The translations under genes were made by a program, and so were the position numbers. A DNA stretch of 63,440 nt, the filler included, from Diploschistes diacapsis (Eukaryota): assembly GCA_023645945.1 (NCBI GenBank). It is 8 parts of 8 records of this genome, joined end to end, with 100 filler letters (N's around TTAATTAATTAA, not from the genome) between each part and the next. Parts side by side here need not be neighbours in the genome. Positions count along the whole stretch, not along the records: positions 1 to 27,511 come from JALAIB010000161.1; 7 more parts are not named here. The stretch is one strand, 5' to 3'. Below are positions 13,396 to 57,926 of this stretch, in pieces; position 1 is the stretch's first letter; each line of letters opens with the position of its first letter. Below the pieces are notes generated by a model. The model worked only from the letters and a program-made list of their open reading frames with translations. It was not told the DNA's origin and made no database searches.

Positions 13396-14851
13396 ATGGC
13401 ACACGCGGAGCAAGTGCACCACGAGGTACCAGCGGCTCCGCCAAAGAACTACAGGGACATTTCCAACCCGGCGGCGGAAGGAATCAGCTATTACACTCCC
13501 AAGCAACATCCTGTTGCAGGCACTGCCCTGAGTGCCAACCCTCCGAAGGTCTTCACTCCAATCAAAATTCGCGACTTGACTTTCCAGAACCGCATCTTTG
13601 TGCGTGCATTTCTCGTCAAGCAGACGGAGCTGAGCGCTAACATCATCATAGCTTTCTCCACTTTGCCAGTACTCTGCCGATGACGGGCATTTCACTCACT
13701 GGTATCCTTACCTCCTTCGATTTGGAAAGATCAACCCGCTTACCTGGATTTTCACAGGCATTACAGCCATTTGGGCGGTATTATTTTGCGTGGCCCCGGT
13801 CTGTCGTTCATTGAGGCCACCTCAGTAACCGCAGAAGGACGCATCACGCCACAGGACTCTGGGCTGTGGAAAGATTCTCAGACCGAAGCACTGAAGCCCA
13901 TTGTCGAATTCGCCCATTCACAAGGCCAGAAGGTGGGCATCCAGCTCGGCCACGCCGGCCGCAAAGCGAGCGCCGTGGCTCCATGGATCAGCGGCTCGGA
14001 TGCTTCCTCCAAAGCCGTTGGTGGCTGGCCCGATGCCGTCTACGCACCAAGTGCTATCGCGCATAGCGATCGCATGTGCGACCCTATTGCCATGAGCCTG
14101 GAGGATATCGAAAATTTCAAGGAAGCCTGGAAGGCTGGCGTGAAGCGTTCATTGGATGCAGGATTTGATGTCATCGAGATCCATAATGCCCATGGATACC
14201 TACTTCACGAGTTTGTGAGTCCCGTCACGAACAAGCGTACAGATCAATATGGCGGCAGTTTTGAAAATAGGATCCGACTTACGCTAGAGCTTGTAGACAT
14301 AACGCGGAGCCTAATTCCGAAGGGCATGCCACTCTTCATCCGGATCAGCGCTACCGATTGGCTGGAAGAGAAGAAGGATATTGAGAGTTGGACCATCGAG
14401 CAAAGTGTTGAATTAGCGAAGAAGTTGGTGGGCAAGGTGGATCTCATCGATGTCAGCTCTGGCGGCAACTCTTCGGAGCAGCATATCGTGCCCGTAGGAG
14501 ACGACAAGCTTTCTGTCGGTGGCAAGGCATATCAAGCAGTGAGTGCCTCGCCTTGTCCGCGTGGCTCAACTACTACATTTCTTGTTAACTAACCTTCCAT
14601 GTCTGCAGCCTTTTGCCCATAAAATCAAAGATGCGGTCGGTGACAAGATCCTCGTCTCAACGGTCGGCGGGATAAAGGAGGGATACATCGCAAAGCAGTG
14701 CATCGATAACGGCCTGGACGTCGTTTTCGTTGGTCGGATGTTCCAAAAGAATCCCGGTCTGCTCTTTCGATTTGGGGACGAGCTCGAGGTTGACGTACGC
14801 ATGCCAAACCAGATTTCTTGGGCTTTCAGGGGTAGAGGAGGTAGTAAATAG
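13396..14851 (+). CDS. NADH:flavin oxidoreductase / old yellow enzyme family (YqjM-like)
   Basis: FTPIKIRDLTFQNRIF|LSPLCQYSA, EATSV..GRI, GIQLGHAGRKAS, GFDVIEIHNAHGYLLHEF, RTDQYGGSFENRIR, VDLIDVSSGG; 3 GT-AG introns. Confidence 0.95.
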
Positions 14852-15704
14852 ATAACCACCGCTAAGTCAAGCACCACAAGTTAGAAAAAAGTAATATAGA
14901 AATCTATTGCTGTGGTTTTAGCTAACATAATCGGTCAGGCTTATGGGCGAGCAATTGCAAGGAACGGTACAAGATAAGAAGCGACACAGTCTTATGCCTT
15001 CTTACCATACTCGGAAATGAAGAACCAGCCTAGAAAAAAGCAGCATTAGCTAGGTAGAATCTGATAGCACATATCAGTCTATTCCTTTCCAAATTCGTAC
15101 ATGGCTGCCATCAATAGAATTTTCCTTATTGTTCACTTACGGTTTGGATGAGCGGCCTCTGTCAAGTAATGATCCACCAGCACTCCAGTGCGCTGGAGAT
15201 TCTGGGTAAGCTTTGGAAAGATGCCACTCTGGTTCCGTTCCCACCCCCTTTTTCCATCCTAGAGGTTAAGAAAATTAGGAGCACCGTATTCGGAAGACAC
15301 CCATGCTGGATGAACAGGTCCAGTATCCCTCACAGGCGGGATCAATGTTCCCAGCTGCGTCAAAAACGCTTCATGCATTCACCCAACGCTGCATAACACT
15401 CCGATGTCAAACGGTCACATACCAGCAAAGTCTGAACTCACAATGAACAAGAGCACCGCAAACACTCTTGTCCAGCCCCTACTCACCATGTCAATCTATT
15501 TCATTACTTCTTTTTCTCTTGTTTTCCCCTTTCACCTTCTTCCTCCCAACCATCATCGTGACATTCTCAACTCACACAAAGTTGATCACCTTCACGATAA
15601 CATTAGCCTTGCGGCACTCAAACTTATCAGTCCACTGAGACCATTGGTTACTTTCCCAATACCCCAATCATCTTCTAAGCCGACCCTCATCCGAGATCGC
15701 TAAA

Positions 15705-17606
15705 ATGGACGTGAACGAACGGATTATCTGTTCTTTGCTCGTTCTCATCTTCTACTTATTTTTCGTACGCCGTATTGCAGGTCCACTTCTCGGATACTGG
15801 CCGATCACGAAGGCCATGTGTGGATTCTGTCTGCTCTACATCCTGTTCGAGTCGTGGCTTGCACTCTTTTTGATGATCTGGATCGTCACATCGATACTCG
15901 CTCTGTGGATGTACTTCGTGCGCGGATTCGGCCGTCCAAACCGGGTCCAGGGTGAGCTGCAAGAGGAGCAGAAAGCTCGTGGGGTTGCTTGGAAGGCAAG
16001 GATTGAGCAGGGAGAAAAAGAAATGGAGGAAGCTTTCGCGGTATGATAGTTTAGCTTCCTGCCGATAATAAAACAGTCTAATGCTGACTGCTTTTAGAAC
16101 AAATTGAGAGCAGCTATCCACGATAACGATAGGCAGCAAGAGCAGCTTCTTGCCAAAGCAAAAGCCGGGTATCAGCAGCAATTCCAGCTCGAACGAGAAC
16201 AGATAGAGTTGGAGGCCTCGAAACAGATCGAAGCCTCGCGCAGAGAGACTGAACTCGTGAAGAGAGCGAGGTTCGTGAGCGGCGCGAATCTCTATCGCGA
16301 ACAGGTCCTCAATGAAATGAAAGATCTTGAGGCAGACAAGGAGGCCGCGGTGGAGAGGTGCAACGCCGAGGTCCTGAGGACGTACGCCGTGCAGAAGAAG
16401 TTTTTCGCCTTGGAGAAGAAGTACCTTGCTCTATTGAAGAGCGAGACTTCAGCAAAAGAAGACCTGGATACGTCACGTAAGACGCTGGCCATGGCATTCA
16501 AGCAACTTTCGGTGTCGAACCGGAAGAACGAAAAGCTAGAGGAGCTTCTGACCAAGAAGGATCCGTCACGTCCGGAAATCGACCGGCTCAAGGCCAAGAT
16601 GGCCGACATCGCTAAGCGACGCGACGATGCTCTGCAAAAGGCCGTCGACAAGTCCAAGCAAGCGGAAGGCGAAAAGTCAACGCTCTTAGCCAAGGTACTG
16701 GTAGCGGACAAGGCGCGCAGAGCTGCGGAGGAGCGAGCCAGGTCCACCGAGTCGAACGCCGAATTGACCGAGGTGATGCTGATCGCCGAGCTCAATGAAG
16801 TGAAGGAGAAGCTAGAAGATGCGCACCGAGAGATGCGGAGGCTGAGCGAAAGGAAAGACTGGGCCTACGCTGAGTACACGAAGCTGGTCAATCCATACGA
16901 CAAAGCTCGTGCGGACAACGCAGCAAAGGACAAGGAACTGGCGGAGGTCAGAGCGAATTGCGAACGGGTGGGGAAGGAGCTGCGCGCCGAAATGGAGAAG
17001 ACAAGGGAAGAGTCCTCGGAGCCGAAGAAAAAACTTGGAGCGCAAGGAACAAGCCCGGCGCCAGCGGTCTATGCCTTCGCCTCCTCGTTTACTTTCCGAT
17101 GTTCGCCGCCTGCACAGGAGTTCCTACCAACTCCCGCAAACGTCCCGGCCGCTGCGCCAGCTCCGCAGACTCCACAGCCAACTCCAGCATCATCGAGTGC
17201 TCCAGAGACAACTTTGCGACTTCTTCCCCAAGATCTCACTGCGCCAGCAGTGCAGCCGGAATTAGCGACAACCTCGGTCCTCGATCAGGGCGGTGATGCT
17301 CCCGCTCAGTCAGAAACTGGAACACAGTCTCTGACTGCGCTGGGTCCGAGTCCGTCTTTTCCCGAGCTGGCTCCGAACGCCTCTCAGGCTGATGCTGAGA
17401 CAATGTCTCCGCCCCTACTAGGCGAGACTCATCAGCTGGCTGCGGAAGACGCGGAGAACGCCGAAGGCGACACTGATGCTGATGGTGACGATATCAGTTC
17501 TATCGGCTCGGAATTGTCGGAACTGACGAGAGCCGCCTGGAAGCTAACGAACACCGATGCCAACATGAACTCGGATGCAAATGGCAACGACTCAAGCGCT
17601 GCTTAA
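15705..17606 (+). CDS. Orphan protein: N-terminal transmembrane segments, long coiled coil, Pro/Ala/Thr-rich then acidic disordered tail (~614 aa)
   Basis: ORF 15705-16046 (hydrophobic) joins ORF 16104-17606 in frame through phase-0 intron 16041-16097 (GTATGA..GCTGAC..TAG); E/K/A/L-rich heptad-like middle; no family recognised. Confidence 0.75.
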
Positions 17607-17644
17607 GCCAGGCCAACGTCAGCATCGAATCTGCAGTCAGTTTC

Positions 17645-18205
17645 TAATTCGAAGGGTGTTACGGTCGAGATTTCCACGCCGAGCCTTCGCAAGATACTAG
17701 CTTCCGCATCAATGACGTTCTTCTTCCAACGACGGTTCTCTAAGGGTGTTACGGTCACAGTATTTCCTCGCCGGCCCTTCACGAGAAACCAGCCTCCGCG
17801 CCATTAACGTTCTTCCCGAAACAACGGTTTTCTAGGGGTGTTACGGTCATACGACTTTCTCGCCGGCCCTTTACTAGATACCAGCTTCCGCCTCAAGCGA
17901 TGTTCCTGCTCAGACAAAATTCTTTAAGGGTGCTTACGGTCACAGGACTTCCTCGCCGGCCCTTCAAAAGATATTGGTTTCCGCAACGCCAACGTTCTTC
18001 CTGTAACGGCAGTTCTCCAGGGTGTTTACGGTCACAGATAGTTCTCGCCGGCCCTTTACATGATACCAGTTCCCAGATGAAAGACCTCTTTGCTTTCAAG
18101 AAAATTCTCTAGGGGTATTTACGCTCACAGGACTTCCTCACTGACCCTCAACAGAGATTCCCGGAGTGCTTACGAATCGGATTCCCGGCGCCGGCTCCGC
18201 GGATT
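17645..18205 (+). repeat. Non-coding tandem array of 7 conserved bulged stem-loop units (~90-93 bp period), candidate structured RNA element in a 3' UTR or ncRNA
   Basis: Core RGGGTG(Y)TTACGGTC..TTYCTCGCCGGCCCTT recurs at ~17653, 17743, 17835, 17927, 18019, 18112, plus a variant at ~18162; spacings 90/92/92/92/93/~50 do not keep a reading frame. Confidence 0.88.
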
Positions 18206-19143
18206 GGCAAGCTCGAGCACCTTCGATGACAACTTTACGGACTCGATTTCGTCGTTGATTTGGAAGGGATAGCTGCACAGCGAGCGTAGCGCCATCAAAT
18301 GATGGTTGCTCAACGAGAAGTGTTGATGGACGGATACACGCCAGCACTCGACATTATTATTCAATTCAGCAAGATGCGAAACAGCAACTCGGGCTTTGAT
18401 TCCTTGAAAAGATCCTTCTCGACATCCACTGCAACACAACGGGGGACGAGCTGATCGATATACTGTAGATCCATAGACCGATAGGATTCCAAAGGTCGCG
18501 CTCATGAAACGGGCGAGTAAAAGTGCCAAGACCCCCCGCCAGCGTTTCCAAATTTCCCCGTAGGGAACTTGACTTAACCTAACCGAGCCACTCACATCTC
18601 GGGCAGTCAGTTCCTCCTGCAGTCTAAGCATGCATCACGACAGCCTCTCATTGTCTTCACTCATGGCCAGTTTGACGCATTGAGCTCGTTGAGTCGATCA
18701 TTGCACTCCCTATCACACTCCTTATGCGCTTGAAAGCCGCTCTCTAAGCAGTATCAACAGACGCTCCGGATTAAAGTATTCGTTCGTCAGGCACGGCACC
18801 TCGAAGCTCTTGTTACGGCATCACCCTCCTTTGTCCGTTGCGACACTGTGCGAAAATAGCCTTTCCTTTGATAACAATCGCGCAACAAACCGGATAGCGA
18901 TTTTGAGGCTCGAGTCACTCACGTTCTTTGCACCTTCGAGACGAGCTCTACGATTACAGCGACTCTGGAATTCTCGATTATCTCCGCACCTTGTCTAAAC
19001 GATCGATCACATCACCTGGCTTGTGTAAAGAGATCAGATGGGGTACAAAAACATTTGAGGTTCAGATTCGCATCTGCAGTCCTCTGCAGTGGCTCCTTTT
19101 ACCTCTTTAAGAAGCACAGCAGTTTGCTATATTGCGGCCCACA

Positions 19144-21072
19144 ATGGGGATTTTCGGTTGGGACAGTGAAAAGAACGAAAGACTTACTGCCGAACACAAG
19201 TGGGATTACATCAATCTCTCAGACTTTAGATCCCACTCTTGCTGGACCCCCTTCACCTATGTCGTGCTCTACATATCTCTCCTGATATCCATCGCCTGCT
19301 ACGCCATCGATGTATTCACCTGCAGTCAGCTCCTCCTCTTTGACAGATGGAGTGGTCAAATCCAACCGGTTGTTCCGCTTTACATATCTCGATGGGTATT
19401 CGCTGGTTGTATCCTGCTCAGTCTTGTCCTATTGGTGTTTCGGTGGATTCGTGCTGTTCGCGCAATCAAATCCGGAGGAATCGCTAAAAGCTATCTTGAT
19501 CCCCTAGCGGTGCGTCTTCAAAGCATTCGAATGGGCCAGAACGGACGAGGATGGCGCAGGTTCCTCTTATTTACCGAACTTACAAAGAGCAAGAAAGGCG
19601 CAGAATATGTGGCGCTGTTCTCATACTTCTCCTTTGAGGCTTCGCTGCGCATAATCCTGGCCGAAGGCCCCAGACAAGCCATAAACGCCATTACCATAGC
19701 TTCCGTTCTGCAGTCTCAATTCATACCGAACGGGCAGCACGCCGCCGCTACTGGCAGCTCTCCAATTGCGCAGTTCTTCATCAACGTCAAGTTATACGCC
19801 CAAGGCAATCAGCTTCGAGCTGTCGTCTTATTTGGTATGCTTTTCACGCTGCTTATCTGGATTATCGCAGCTTTGAGCTTAGTAGTTGCTTGTACACTTT
19901 ATGTCGTTTTTCTTTGGCATCATATTCCTTCGGCTGATGGAGGACTGGCAGGATTCTGCAAGCGAAAGATTGACGGCAGATTGCAGAAGATTGTCGATGT
20001 CAAAGTTAAGAAGGCATTAGAAAAGGAAGAAGCGAAGTCCCTTGGAGGAGAATCAATGCCCCGCATCAAGAAGCAGCCAACATTGCCAGTTCTCGATGAT
20101 TTTGGGGATGATAAGCTGCCACAAATGCCAACCTTGAATCGCCAGAATACCCAGGCGACACAAGCGACAGTCAGCTCTCAGGCCTCTGCCGCCGTCGGTA
20201 AATCTAGGCCTGGATTTGAAAGGCAACCAACTGTACCAGATATTGGCAGAAACTTTGCAAGGCCCTTGCCCTCACGGACAGCAACGCAATCGTCTGCACG
20301 TAGCTATAGCTCGAATGCACCATTGGTCGGCTCCGCTGCCCCCATGGGTTATGATCAGTCTGGAAGATCATACTCTCCAACAGAATTGTCCCAAGTGGGC
20401 CCTTTTCTCGACTCCAAGCCATTCTTAGGTCGTACCCTTACTGGCCAAACTCAGGGTTCTCAAAGTTCTTATATTTCTAACCAAGACCACATGCCACTAT
20501 CGCGACAGAACACTGCCGGAACCCATTCCAGCTCCAACGGCCGTCCCTTTCCTGGGCCATATGCTTGTCCAGCTCGTCAGAATACAGGCATGGGCACCAC
20601 TCCATACTATCAACCAATTCAAAGTGCACCTCGACGACAAAACACGAATGAAAGTGCTCGAAGTGTTGGAGATTATTTTGACATGAGCGGTGGAACTCCC
20701 TCATCTCTTTCACGAAATCCCACCTTTCAATCAACTTGGCAGTCGCCACCGGGTTTTGAGCCACAGTCCCGCTATGCTCAGAATGGAGGTATTGCACAGA
20801 GCAGAGAAAATCCTTACATGGCTTACAATGTTGGTATACCTGTCCAAGTTCAAGGTGGCAACTCTGCGGGGCTGGTTCAACCTTCGAATTTCCAAAGCAG
20901 TCGATGGCACAACAATCTCAATGGGCCTCCAATCTTGTCAAGGTCTGGGACCGCTCCGCCAGCGGCATACCCTTACGACGACTCATTTTATGACTCTTAC
21001 CGAAGCGATACCTCTACTTTCTCACGGCCTGCAATGCCAGTCAGAGCAGCAACAGCCGGGCCAGGGGCTTAG
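19144..21072 (+). CDS. KCH1: Kch1/Prm6-family membrane protein (low-affinity K+ transporter-like) with long disordered C-tail
   Basis: WDYINLSDF, SYLDPLAVRLQSIR, FLLFTELTKSKKGAEYVALFSYFSF, ILAEGPRQAINA; several TM segments; intronless. Confidence 0.82.
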   Translation: MGIFGWDSEKNERLTAEHKWDYINLSDFRSHSCWTPFTYVVLYISLLISIACYAIDVFTCSQLLLFDRWSGQIQPVVPLYISRWVFAGCILLSLVLLVFRWIRAVRAIKSGGIAKSYLDPLAVRLQSIRMGQNGRGWRRFLLFTELTKSKKGAEYVALFSYFSFEASLRIILAEGPRQAINAITIASVLQSQFIPNGQHAAATGSSPIAQFFINVKLYAQGNQLRAVVLFGMLFTLLIWIIAALSLVVACTLYVVFLWHHIPSADGGLAGFCKRKIDGRLQKIVDVKVKKALEKEEAKSLGGESMPRIKKQPTLPVLDDFGDDKLPQMPTLNRQNTQATQATVSSQASAAVGKSRPGFERQPTVPDIGRNFARPLPSRTATQSSARSYSSNAPLVGSAAPMGYDQSGRSYSPTELSQVGPFLDSKPFLGRTLTGQTQGSQSSYISNQDHMPLSRQNTAGTHSSSNGRPFPGPYACPARQNTGMGTTPYYQPIQSAPRRQNTNESARSVGDYFDMSGGTPSSLSRNPTFQSTWQSPPGFEPQSRYAQNGGIAQSRENPYMAYNVGIPVQVQGGNSAGLVQPSNFQSSRWHNNLNGPPILSRSGTAPPAAYPYDDSFYDSYRSDTSTFSRPAMPVRAATAGPGA

Positions 21073-40639: not shown

Positions 40640-42030
40640 TGTGGCTCTCGTCCTTCTTTTTCTCTTATTGGGAAAGCCCTTGCTAGTTTGTTGCCCTCCA
40701 TAATAGATGCTCAATGTCAGACAGCTTAATGGTACTTGGCGGTCTCAGTGGCACGGATAGGGTTGATGCATCCTTTGACTATGTTCTTATCAAAGGAGGC
40801 ACAGGTAGGCTGGCTATAGCTACGTACCCAGTAAGGAAACCCTGAGGGCCTTGCTATGATTGAAGCGGCATCACTTTATGAAGTTAGGAACCCAGTGCCG
40901 GCATCTACCACCCCTGAAGATGTTATCTTTTATGAATTGGACATCACTGACAACGATCCATTGGTAGATTGGAACTTCATTACTCAACCCCAGTCTGGAG
41001 TTTTGAACAAAATAGGACTCCACTTTGCAAGGGCCAGATGCCTCGGCGGAAGCTCTGCCCAAAACTTCATGATATCCCAGCGCCTAACGGCCCACAACCT
41101 TGAGGAGCGGGCCGACGCTGTAAACGACCCACCGTGGACACTTGACAACGTCTTCCCATACTGTAAATGGAGCTGTAAATTCACGCCGCCAACACCAACT
41201 AAATGAGGTCCGAATGCTAATGCCAGCTACGATGCAAGCGCATGCAGTCCTGGCGACGAACCTATTGATACCCTCCAGCGCCAACTATGCCGAAAATTTT
41301 AGCTCTTGGGTGGAAGAATCGATTGTTAAGATTAGTATCGATACAGGGGAGGACTTCAACAGCGACTCACTCATTGGCTGCCAATACTGCCCCAGCAGGA
41401 TTACGCTCAGCAAAATCGAGGGAGCCTCCTTACAAACTATCTTTTTAACTCCTTCGCCGACAATGAATACGTGGAAGTCTACTCCGCCACCCTCACCACC
41501 AATTTACTTTTTGGATCAACAACACCGCCACGGGGCGTCCAGCCATTCACACTCCATATCTCCTACGCCCTGTCGGTGACCTAATAAGTCACTAACCCAG
41601 CTGGCACCTTCCAATACCCACGACTCCTCATGTGCTTAAGCATTGGCCTGACGGATCAGCTTTCCGCACTAGGCATTTCCATCTTCGCGGACAGACCAGG
41701 CGTAGACCAAAACATGGCAGACCACATTCTTTGGCCGCGCCTACCGTGTCAAGTTATCGACCTCCACCATGCTCGCCAATAGTCTCCCCTGCACCGCCTC
41801 GGAGTTCGCAACAGAAGACATCCTCCTCCTATTGGACCCGCTCACAAACACCTGCGCCGAATTCCTAGGCTGGGAAAAGTCCCCTTTCTATTACCCCGAA
41901 AATCCACCGTCTCCACGTCCTCCGACCTCGCAAGCTTTCCTAGCAGACTAACCCGAGACTGCAGTCCATCTGCGCGGCTGGCCACGTCGGCAACTGTGGC
42001 GATCTATTCAGGAGCCAGCCAAACGATGGG
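40640..42030 (+). pseudogene. GMC (glucose-methanol-choline) oxidoreductase pseudogene
   Basis: Degenerate FDYVLIKGGTGRLAIA, IEAA, ARARCLGGSSAQNFMISQR, PGVDQNMADH motifs spread over several frames with stops; boundaries approximate. Confidence 0.85.
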
Positions 42031-50649: not shown

Positions 50650-51193
50650 GGGGCAGCGGTATAAGAGATCGCTTTTAGGTATCAATCTGGATTGAATGCT
50701 TGATTGAAGGCTGGAGATGCATATACCCGCCGGAAGCTGCCAAGTCTGCATGGCGGCTTCTTCAAAGAATAGCCCATTGGAATGATACTTGTCAGCTGCT
50801 TCAAGGGAATGCCCCGGGCTTCAGGCACAAATCGAATCTTTATCGACCTTTGAAGTCCTCCCAAGTCATATCCAGTGTCAACATCACTCAAAGAATAAGA
50901 GCAGCACGTTCGTCTTATTCCTCTTCGGAACACAAGCATCTTTCGTTTATTAGTCGCCACAACCTTGGATTACCAAGGGAAGAGGGTGACACAAGAGTGC
51001 TCGATGCATGGTACTGCGTCATAGTTGAGATTCAGCTCTGTAATCAAAGCGGTTGGTATGATTTACGTCTAAGGACCCCGTGTTGATGTGGCACCTAGAG
51101 CTTCGGCGTTTGGGCTGGTGTTATCTGCGTCGCGTGTGGCTATGAGGTCCGCACGCACGCGACTAAGGAATATGCACAACCGACAGGAAATAC

Positions 51194-51315
51194 ATACGAT
51201 TGATGGAGGGACATGTACAACGGATGGGGAACTATATACGATTGATGGAGGAACAGATATGATCAACCGACGGAGGGACGTATGCGATGGAGAGAATATT
51301 CCACCGACGGAGGAA
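51194..51315 (+). repeat. Degenerate ~20-bp tandem repeat (core GAYGGAGGRAC, ~6 copies)
   Basis: Cores at ~51202, 51223, 51244, 51269, 51286, 51306; ATACGATTGATGGAGG occurs twice. Confidence 0.6.
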
Positions 51316-57855: not shown

Positions 57856-57926
57856 TACACACATACACATACACATACATATACACATAATACCCCCATT
57901 CGCGCTCCCATTCGCGCTCCCATTCG
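57856..57926. repeat. (CATACA)n-like microsatellite and 12-bp tandem repeat (CCCATTCGCGCT x2.7) upstream of PYM1
   Basis: Direct reading. Confidence 0.8.

Follow-up and report, generated by a model that had tools for sequence, protein, structure and literature searches.

What is the array of related imperfect palindromes that stands directly behind a gene of Diploschistes diacapsis, and would it work as RNA, as DNA or not at all? The fungus occurs in lichen and rock samples, and the window, i.e. the whole stretch of its DNA that was analysed (63,440 nt, filler included), holds the tandem array at 17645..18208 on the + strand. Five full units of 92 or 93 nt (17645-18105) are followed by two units that consist of the hairpin only (18106-18208). 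The original prediction was that these are covarying RNA hairpins under selection for their structure.

Gene context and layout of the array

The array begins 40 nt past the stop codon of the upstream gene, on the sense strand of that gene, which is read on the + strand from two exons. Exon 1 (15705..16040; 112 codons, rich in hydrophobic helices) was taken from the ORF list, and a 57-nt intron at 16041..16097 (GTATGA ... CTGAC ... TAG) joins it in frame to exon 2 (16098..17606), the frame being checked by hand against the ORFs. Exon 2 encodes a coiled-coil-like part and then a Pro/Ala/Ser-rich acidic tail, and its stop codon is the TAA at 17604-17606. Judged by its sequence, the product is probably a membrane-anchored coiled-coil protein of ~614 residues. 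It matches no Pfam family, a word-indexed search and phmmer against 1.84 billion representatives returned only the protein itself, and no homologue of exon 1 was found among longer proteins. The gene had been called an orphan, and no search that was run gave it a homologue. The strain differences listed for its ORF number 26, of which 11 are synonymous and 15 nonsynonymous, a mix that fits a real but fast-evolving gene.

Downstream lies a gene for a fungal potassium channel of the KCH family (19132..21072, +; Pfam PF16944, E 2.3e-93). The array is located ~930-1490 nt upstream of it, so that the near end is ~930 nt from the ATG. Between 17607 and 19140 the only poly(A)-type hexamer is ATTAAA at 18770, and a scan for bacterial-type promoters and terminators gave nothing relevant. 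The most conserved word of the array, TGTTACGG, has 4 matches in the window (0.99 expected), 3 of them within the array. The word also stands alone on the + strand at 18811-18818, ~320 nt before the ATG of the channel gene, and this solitary occurrence could be a chance match or a decayed single copy. On the far side of the orphan gene, at 13771-14851, an NADH:flavin oxidoreductase of the old-yellow-enzyme type (PF00724, E 2.5e-46) is present as two overlapping ORFs, probably split by an intron.

Sequence reading and alignment place the unit starts at 17645, 17737, 17829, 17921, 18013, 18106 and 18157. Tandem Repeats Finder reported 17652-18073 with a period of 92 nt (4.6 copies, 71 % matches) and a second period of 185 nt (75-78 % matches) that extends to 18139, and a repeat search returned a 48-nt core in five in-register copies with spacings of 92, 93, 92 and 93 nt. 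The core pattern has 4 matches in the window as compared to 0 in 100 shuffles, which exceeds chance expectation. By pattern, repeat and covariance-model searches the array is the sole copy in the 63-kb window. The covariance model built from the seven hairpins recovers just those seven in 63 kb, with scores of 36.2-68.2 bits; the next match (41073-41129, 13.9 bits, E 0.014) lies within an ORF and was taken as chance. A vestigial further copy had been proposed at 18230-18267. It is not borne out by the model, which has no match there at E <= 10, and TTTACGG at 18234-18240 (+) is the only trace visible on reading the sequence. A coding reading of the array was dropped, stops being present in all six frames.

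When the unit was sought by pattern in metagenomes, it was absent from all loci among the at least 119 matches listed. At L116:300-820, L027:3001-3100 and ~25 more loci the match was to an unrelated repeat of bacterial appearance, which has two short GC-rich hairpins (GACC-TTAC-GGTC and GGCCC-TTCG-GGCC). It occurs five times in L116, four of the copies being 69 nt apart, and by its looks it is a dispersed palindromic repeat or several of these in an array. The window itself holds two other tandem repeats, one at 57895-57926 (perfect 12-nt unit, 2.7 copies) and one at 51185-51254 (21-nt unit, 3.3 copies, 68 % matches).

Read from the base inward, the consensus unit opens with a basal stem of 4-5 bp, followed by a 3' bulge of 2 nt and the 6-bp outer stem. 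Above these come the invariant 5' bulge G(Y)UUA, the inner stem CGGU/GCCG of 4 bp and a loop of 12-14 nt, which is variable. RNAalifold on the seven hairpin segments gave the same 6-bp outer stem, 5' bulge and 4-bp inner stem (6 + 4 pairs, -7.17 kcal/mol, covariation term -0.35). This is the two-stem bulged fold that had been proposed, and the proposed outer-stem starts are correct to 1 nt.

The units differ in how well they hold this fold on the + strand (z is against dinucleotide shuffles, bits are those of the covariance model and pair probabilities are local). In unit 1 (17647..17697; -11.5 kcal/mol, z -0.29, 52.0 bits, pair probability 0.80) the outer stem is extended as CGAAGG/CCUUCG, with one G.G mismatch and a 12-nt loop. 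Unit 2 (17737..17787; -14.4 kcal/mol, z -1.49, 65.6 bits) has the pair probability 0.90, and unit 3 (17829..17879; -11.0 kcal/mol, z -0.18, 60.4 bits, 0.37) carries an A-U to G-U change in the outer stem. Unit 4 (17921..17972; -16.0 kcal/mol, z -1.94, 68.2 bits, 0.88) has a 6-nt bulge (GCUUA plus G) and a basal stem UCUUU/AAAGA. Unit 5 (18013..18064; -11.4 kcal/mol, z -0.74, 59.1 bits, 0.61) is the last with a linker. Unit 6 (18106..18160; -9.9 kcal/mol, z -0.13, 52.1 bits, 0.01) keeps a basal stem UCUCU/AGAGA, and its arms are decayed and its fold largely lost. The degenerate unit 7 (18157..18208; z +0.39, 36.2 bits, 0.56) retains GUGCUUACG and CGCCGGC, and its outer stem now reads CGGAGU/GCUCCG, which amounts to three double changes. 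All the variants quoted in the original prediction are present in the units, including the U-G to U-A changes in units 1 and 6 and the basal stem UCUAG/CUAGA. The length changes within the hairpin are all confined to predicted unpaired parts: the 5' bulge measures 5 or 6 nt, the loop 12, 13 or 14 nt, and the related strain X2 has a 1-nt deletion in the 3' bulge, at 18058.

The loop of unit 6 is identical to that of unit 4 (17921-17972) at 14/14 positions, and the arms differ at 4/15 and 4/10 positions, a pattern which is the reverse of that in units 1-5. As far as the sequence goes, this suggests that unit 6 is a recent copy with decaying arms, or the product of a loop-limited conversion.

Conservation and pairing of the two arms

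We defined the arms as unit positions 6-20 (5' arm, bulge and inner 5' strand) and 35-44 (3' arm). Among units 1-5, 5 of the 25 arm columns are variable as compared to 57 of 71 outside the arms (Fisher 1.3e-7); in the loop that separates the arms, 11 of 14 columns vary (6e-4). Pairwise identity is 0.90 in the 5' arm, 0.92 in the 3' arm, 0.60 in the loop and 0.57 in the linker, the loop being about as variable as the linker. Faster divergence of the linkers had been predicted and was found (57 % identity vs 90-92 % in the arms), with the addition that the loop (60 %) diverges equally fast. A column permutation test of uneven divergence across the unit gave p 0.0068. Even divergence over the unit, as a neutral minisatellite would have it, does not agree with the arm and non-arm counts, and that explanation in its simple form was rejected. 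Since the near-invariant blocks flank a freely varying 14-nt loop, selection on the two blocks is indicated, and a contiguous conversion tract is ruled out because one that homogenised both blocks would not skip the loop between them. This pattern of divergence indicates that the two arms are kept by something other than neutral drift, and we take two invariant complementary blocks around a free loop as evidence of function.

Whether the arms are kept as partners was approached by a cognate-arm test, in which RNAduplex was run on every 5' half against every 3' half and all permutations were compared; the test is alignment-free, and the copies compared are all paralogues from one locus. The cognate sum is -91.8 kcal/mol vs a permutation mean of -74.9 (sd 5.2). 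The cognate assignment ranks first of 5040 permutations for the seven units, and it also ranks first of 720 when unit 7 is left out, of 120 for units 2-6, of 120 for units 1-5 and of 24 for units 2-5. As controls, two linker segments were paired with the 5' half and gave 0.81 and 0.44. The outcome of the cognate test does not change as long as the flanks measure at least 5 nt (5' side) and at least 8 nt (3' side). With the flanks removed the test falls to 0.024, and with unit 7 removed as well it falls to 0.17, which is not significant. The signal therefore comes from two sources, the rewritten outer stem of unit 7 and the basal extensions. Each unit's arms fit one another better than they fit the arms of other units.

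The core stems say less. Three outer-stem pairs of unit 7 have been kept through changes on both sides, and all three double changes of the core belong to this unit. The ten core pairs are identical across units 2-5, with no covariation there, and being identical they are uninformative on structure. In the alignment-based tests 78.6 % of cells are paired vs 75.3 % in shuffles (reached by 16/500), double changes occur at six pairs (reached by 25/500) and the covariation score is reached by 40/500 shuffles, so that alignment-based covariation is weak. The duplex of the two conserved blocks on the + strand has -11.7 kcal/mol vs -7.3 ± 2.6 in shuffles (p 0.03-0.06). When RNAalifold is given the full units, the 5' arm pairs with a linker word instead (-6.2 kcal/mol), and the full-unit consensus of the - strand is similarly weak (-6.82). 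The claim of covarying hairpins is partly supported, by the basal extensions, by unit 7 and by the cognate-arm test; the core stems of units 1-5 are conserved as sequence.

The + strand folds better than the - strand. Local pair probabilities on the - strand are 0.60, 0.67, 0.01, 0.01, 0.06, 0.00 and 0.07 for units 1-7, to be set beside the + strand values given above, and the two-block duplex has -11.7 kcal/mol on the + strand vs -7.6 on the - strand. The 70 core cells comprise 51 Watson-Crick pairs, 13 G-U, 2 A-C and 4 other combinations. The G-U asymmetry that had been put forward for the + strand is thus seen (13 G-U vs 2 A-C), and it reflects few independent G-U events, because 10 of the 13 G-U cells derive from two inherited columns. 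Excess stability over dinucleotide shuffles is absent from the hairpins on the + strand, as the z values listed for units 1-7 tell. The 694-nt region is less stable than its shuffles (z +2.54 on one strand and +1.37 on the other), and at z +2.54 all of the shuffles (20/20) fold at least as well. Selection on RNA structure, the central claim of the original prediction, is hence favoured by the retention of the arms and by their fit to each other, and not by thermodynamic stability.

Two related strains, X2 and X3, are ~98 % identical to the window and were compared as DNA contigs, one of them from a rock metagenome; the window's own DNA is also found in a lichen metagenome, which may be its source. 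X2 differs at 23/1190 positions in the coding part (16176-17365), at 10/487 positions plus 2 gaps over array units 4-7 and the 3' flank (17926-18414) and at 8/637 positions in 18442-19078. X3 differs at 11/502 positions with no gaps in 17563-18064 and at 11/213 in 18081-18293. At this shallow divergence of ~2 % no slower change is visible in the array than in its flanks. Among the changes listed, three fall in the core or the bulge: a G-C pair becomes G-U through 17960 C>T, an inner-stem pair of unit 7 is restored through 18175 A>G, present in both relatives, and 18117 A>G brings the bulge of unit 6 back to the consensus. In addition, two contigs of X2 have the 11 nt that precede unit 1 placed directly before the position of unit 2 (17742). 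This loose end may come from a variant that is one unit shorter; no joint was reported.

Known elements and competing explanations

A search of 15000-21000 on both strands against Rfam 15 at E <= 10 gave 5 matches, all far below gathering. Of these only HOXB13-AS1_2 touches the array, with a - strand match to 18157-18236 (17.2 bits vs 40, E 1.5); this agrees with the earlier statement that the hairpins belong to no known RNA family. A snoRNA cluster and a self-cleaving satellite were rejected, as there is no Rfam match to either and no fixed box C, box D or ACA is seen by eye in the unit alignment. An origin from a tRNA or a SINE was set aside because the window has no tRNA-like gene. As regards transposon subterminal repeats or a MITE, which would have terminal inverted repeats and further genomic copies, the inverted repeats that flank the array are weak (14 nt at 79 % and 12 nt at 83 %), and other copies of the array are absent in the 63 kb. 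The forkhead motif TGTTTAC is found in unit 5 only, and this motif, like the Myb, bZIP half-site, stress-element, pheromone-element and Helitron-end motifs, is by eye not kept across the units, for which reason these readings were dropped.

The iron-responsive element (IRE) is a hairpin with a 6-nt apical loop CAGUGN, a 5-bp upper stem and a single unpaired C below. Five such elements stand in the 3' UTR of the transferrin-receptor mRNA, where their copy number allows graded control of mRNA stability, and the protein that reads them is sequence-specific and recognises bulge and loop. The array resembles this arrangement in that several copies of a small bulged stem-loop follow one gene. Unlike IREs, it has variable loops of 12-14 nt and bulges of 5-6 nt, and it is a head-to-tail repeat with a constant 92-nt period, in a fungus and behind an orphan gene. 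With these dimensions and no Rfam IRE match at E <= 10, the IRE was rejected as an identity for the units. Bacterial REP/BIME elements are likewise imperfect palindromes just after genes that act as 3' stem-loops in the mRNA. The likeness lies in bulged imperfect palindromes directly past a stop codon with arms kept complementary. REP/BIME elements, however, are scattered over a bacterial genome by the hundred and have a transposase dedicated to their mobilisation, whereas the array is unique in 63 kb and belongs to a eukaryote with spliced genes.

We prefer, with a probability of roughly 40 %, to read the array as a set of stem-loops for multivalent binding that would lie in the 3' UTR of the orphan gene, or just past it, and would act as RNA. 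Five features combined, i.e. the selected arms, the arm-to-arm co-variation, the restriction of length changes to unpaired parts, the bias to the + strand and the start 40 nt past the stop codon, point to a hairpin whose role depends on single-stranded nucleic acid, in the simplest case RNA. Against this, the arms are conserved as sequence and not for pairing alone, which would fit a DNA site too. If the array were instead cis-regulatory at the DNA level, candidate protein-binding sites would be the boxes RGGGTG(N)TTACGGTC and CGCCGGCCCTT, either for a zinc-cluster-type factor on the inverted CGG/CCG or for a Myb-type roadblock or insulator protein, and the repeated boxes would serve to activate the downstream K+-channel gene or to stop transcripts of the upstream gene from running into it. 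Triplets of this inverted kind, CGG ... CCG, serve fungal Zn2Cys6 factors as half-sites, repeated zinc-cluster sites (CGG-N-CCG) form upstream activating sequences, and repeated sites for terminator proteins stand behind rRNA genes. The array has inverted CGG ... CCG triplets in units 1-5, and in unit 7 of the related strains; like those systems, it offers conserved copies of boxes with inverted CGG triplets, placed between two genes on the same strand and upstream of both the KCH gene and the solitary TGTTACGG ~320 nt before it. The conservation of the boxes as sequence nearly everywhere, the lack of covariation in units 2-5 and the lack of excess thermodynamic stability point the same way. 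Yet the distance from CGG to CCG varies, being 14 nt in unit 1 and 16 nt in units 2-5 (we know of no 14-16 nt spacing rule for zinc-cluster factors), the blocks of 15 and 10 nt are longer than CGG half-sites, a 1-nt insertion stands in the middle of box A in units 4-7, and the boxes are absent elsewhere in 63 kb apart from short chance-level words. The position directly past a stop codon and ~930 nt from the downstream ATG also speaks against such an array. A base-reading protein would need neither the AAGGG/CCCTT arms of unit 7, rewritten yet complementary, nor basal flanks that co-vary so as to preserve pairing. On this evidence we regard a DNA-level array as rather unlikely.

A hairpin-prone minisatellite with no RNA function is also unlikely. 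In this reading unequal exchange would have amplified the quasi-palindromic unit, and intra-strand template switching at replication would recopy one arm from the other and so produce apparent compensatory changes without selection on RNA. Decay of the edge units (units 1, 6 and 7 and the supposed vestige) next to central units that are alike is what unequal exchange expects, the loose end at 17742 in X2 hints at a difference in unit number, and between strains the array changes at the rate of its flanks. According to PMC8794818, compensatory changes in hairpins can arise through template switching, and by that mechanism the three double changes of unit 7 could be a single event. Quasi-palindromic minisatellites shaped in this way would share with the array an imperfect palindrome in the tandem unit and multi-base changes that keep complementarity. 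What neither exchange nor template switching explains is two near-invariant blocks beside 57-60 % identity in loop and linker. Moreover, copying of arms would turn U-G pairs into Watson-Crick pairs, whereas U-G persists in 5 of 7 units at two positions. Arms so much better conserved than loop and linker, and wobble pairs that are retained, would not follow from this mechanism by itself. The structural evidence that we ascribe to a 3' UTR would serve equally for an RNA independent of the upstream mRNA, such as a precursor of several small RNAs, a non-coding transcript of its own or a piece of an extended leader on the K+-channel mRNA, and the 92-nt unit is within the size range of snoRNAs. We consider this very unlikely. 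The array has no Rfam match at E <= 10 among snoRNA, miRNA, ribozyme or other families, conserved C/D or H/ACA boxes are not seen by eye, for Dicer-type processing the stems are short, at 14-15 pairs with interruptions, and the downstream ATG is ~930 nt away. For the small-RNA-precursor and self-cleaving variants that were suggested originally, nothing was found in their support.

A possible docking platform on an orphan mRNA

Returning to the preferred reading of a stem-loop array acting as RNA, the array would be five to seven copies of one cis-acting element, a ~50-nt imperfect stem-loop. These stem-loops would act as + strand RNA in the 3' UTR of the orphan membrane/coiled-coil gene, or a short way past it. 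The invariant bulge G(Y)UUA together with the closing U-G pairs would be the recognition point for a putative sequence-specific RNA-binding protein, and five to seven copies at a constant 92-nt spacing would allow multivalent docking of that protein. Docking in turn would control the stability, translation or localisation of the upstream mRNA. In this scheme we infer that the array is transcribed, that a binding protein exists and that the mRNA is affected by it.

The element is outside the described families, but it is of a known kind, as other systems too have repeated cis-acting stem-loops that follow a gene. A literature search found no comparable fungal array described, and we know of no 3' UTR element of filamentous or lichen-associated fungi that has been described as repeated and constrained in structure. 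A wider proposal is that an old, selection-maintained array of bulged stem-loops with a 92-nt period, in the 3' UTR of a lineage-specific gene, stands for an undescribed fungal class of multivalent RNA docking elements with a dedicated protein; we put this forward tentatively and hold it to be somewhat doubtful. If the array is an RNA docking platform, it would be a compact natural case of multivalent mRNA control on an orphan gene and a handle for finding its reader protein. If it works at the DNA level, it would be a clear instance of an insulator or enhancer that is repeated between genes in tandem. In both cases the two complementary invariant blocks around a free loop are evidence of a directly testable function.
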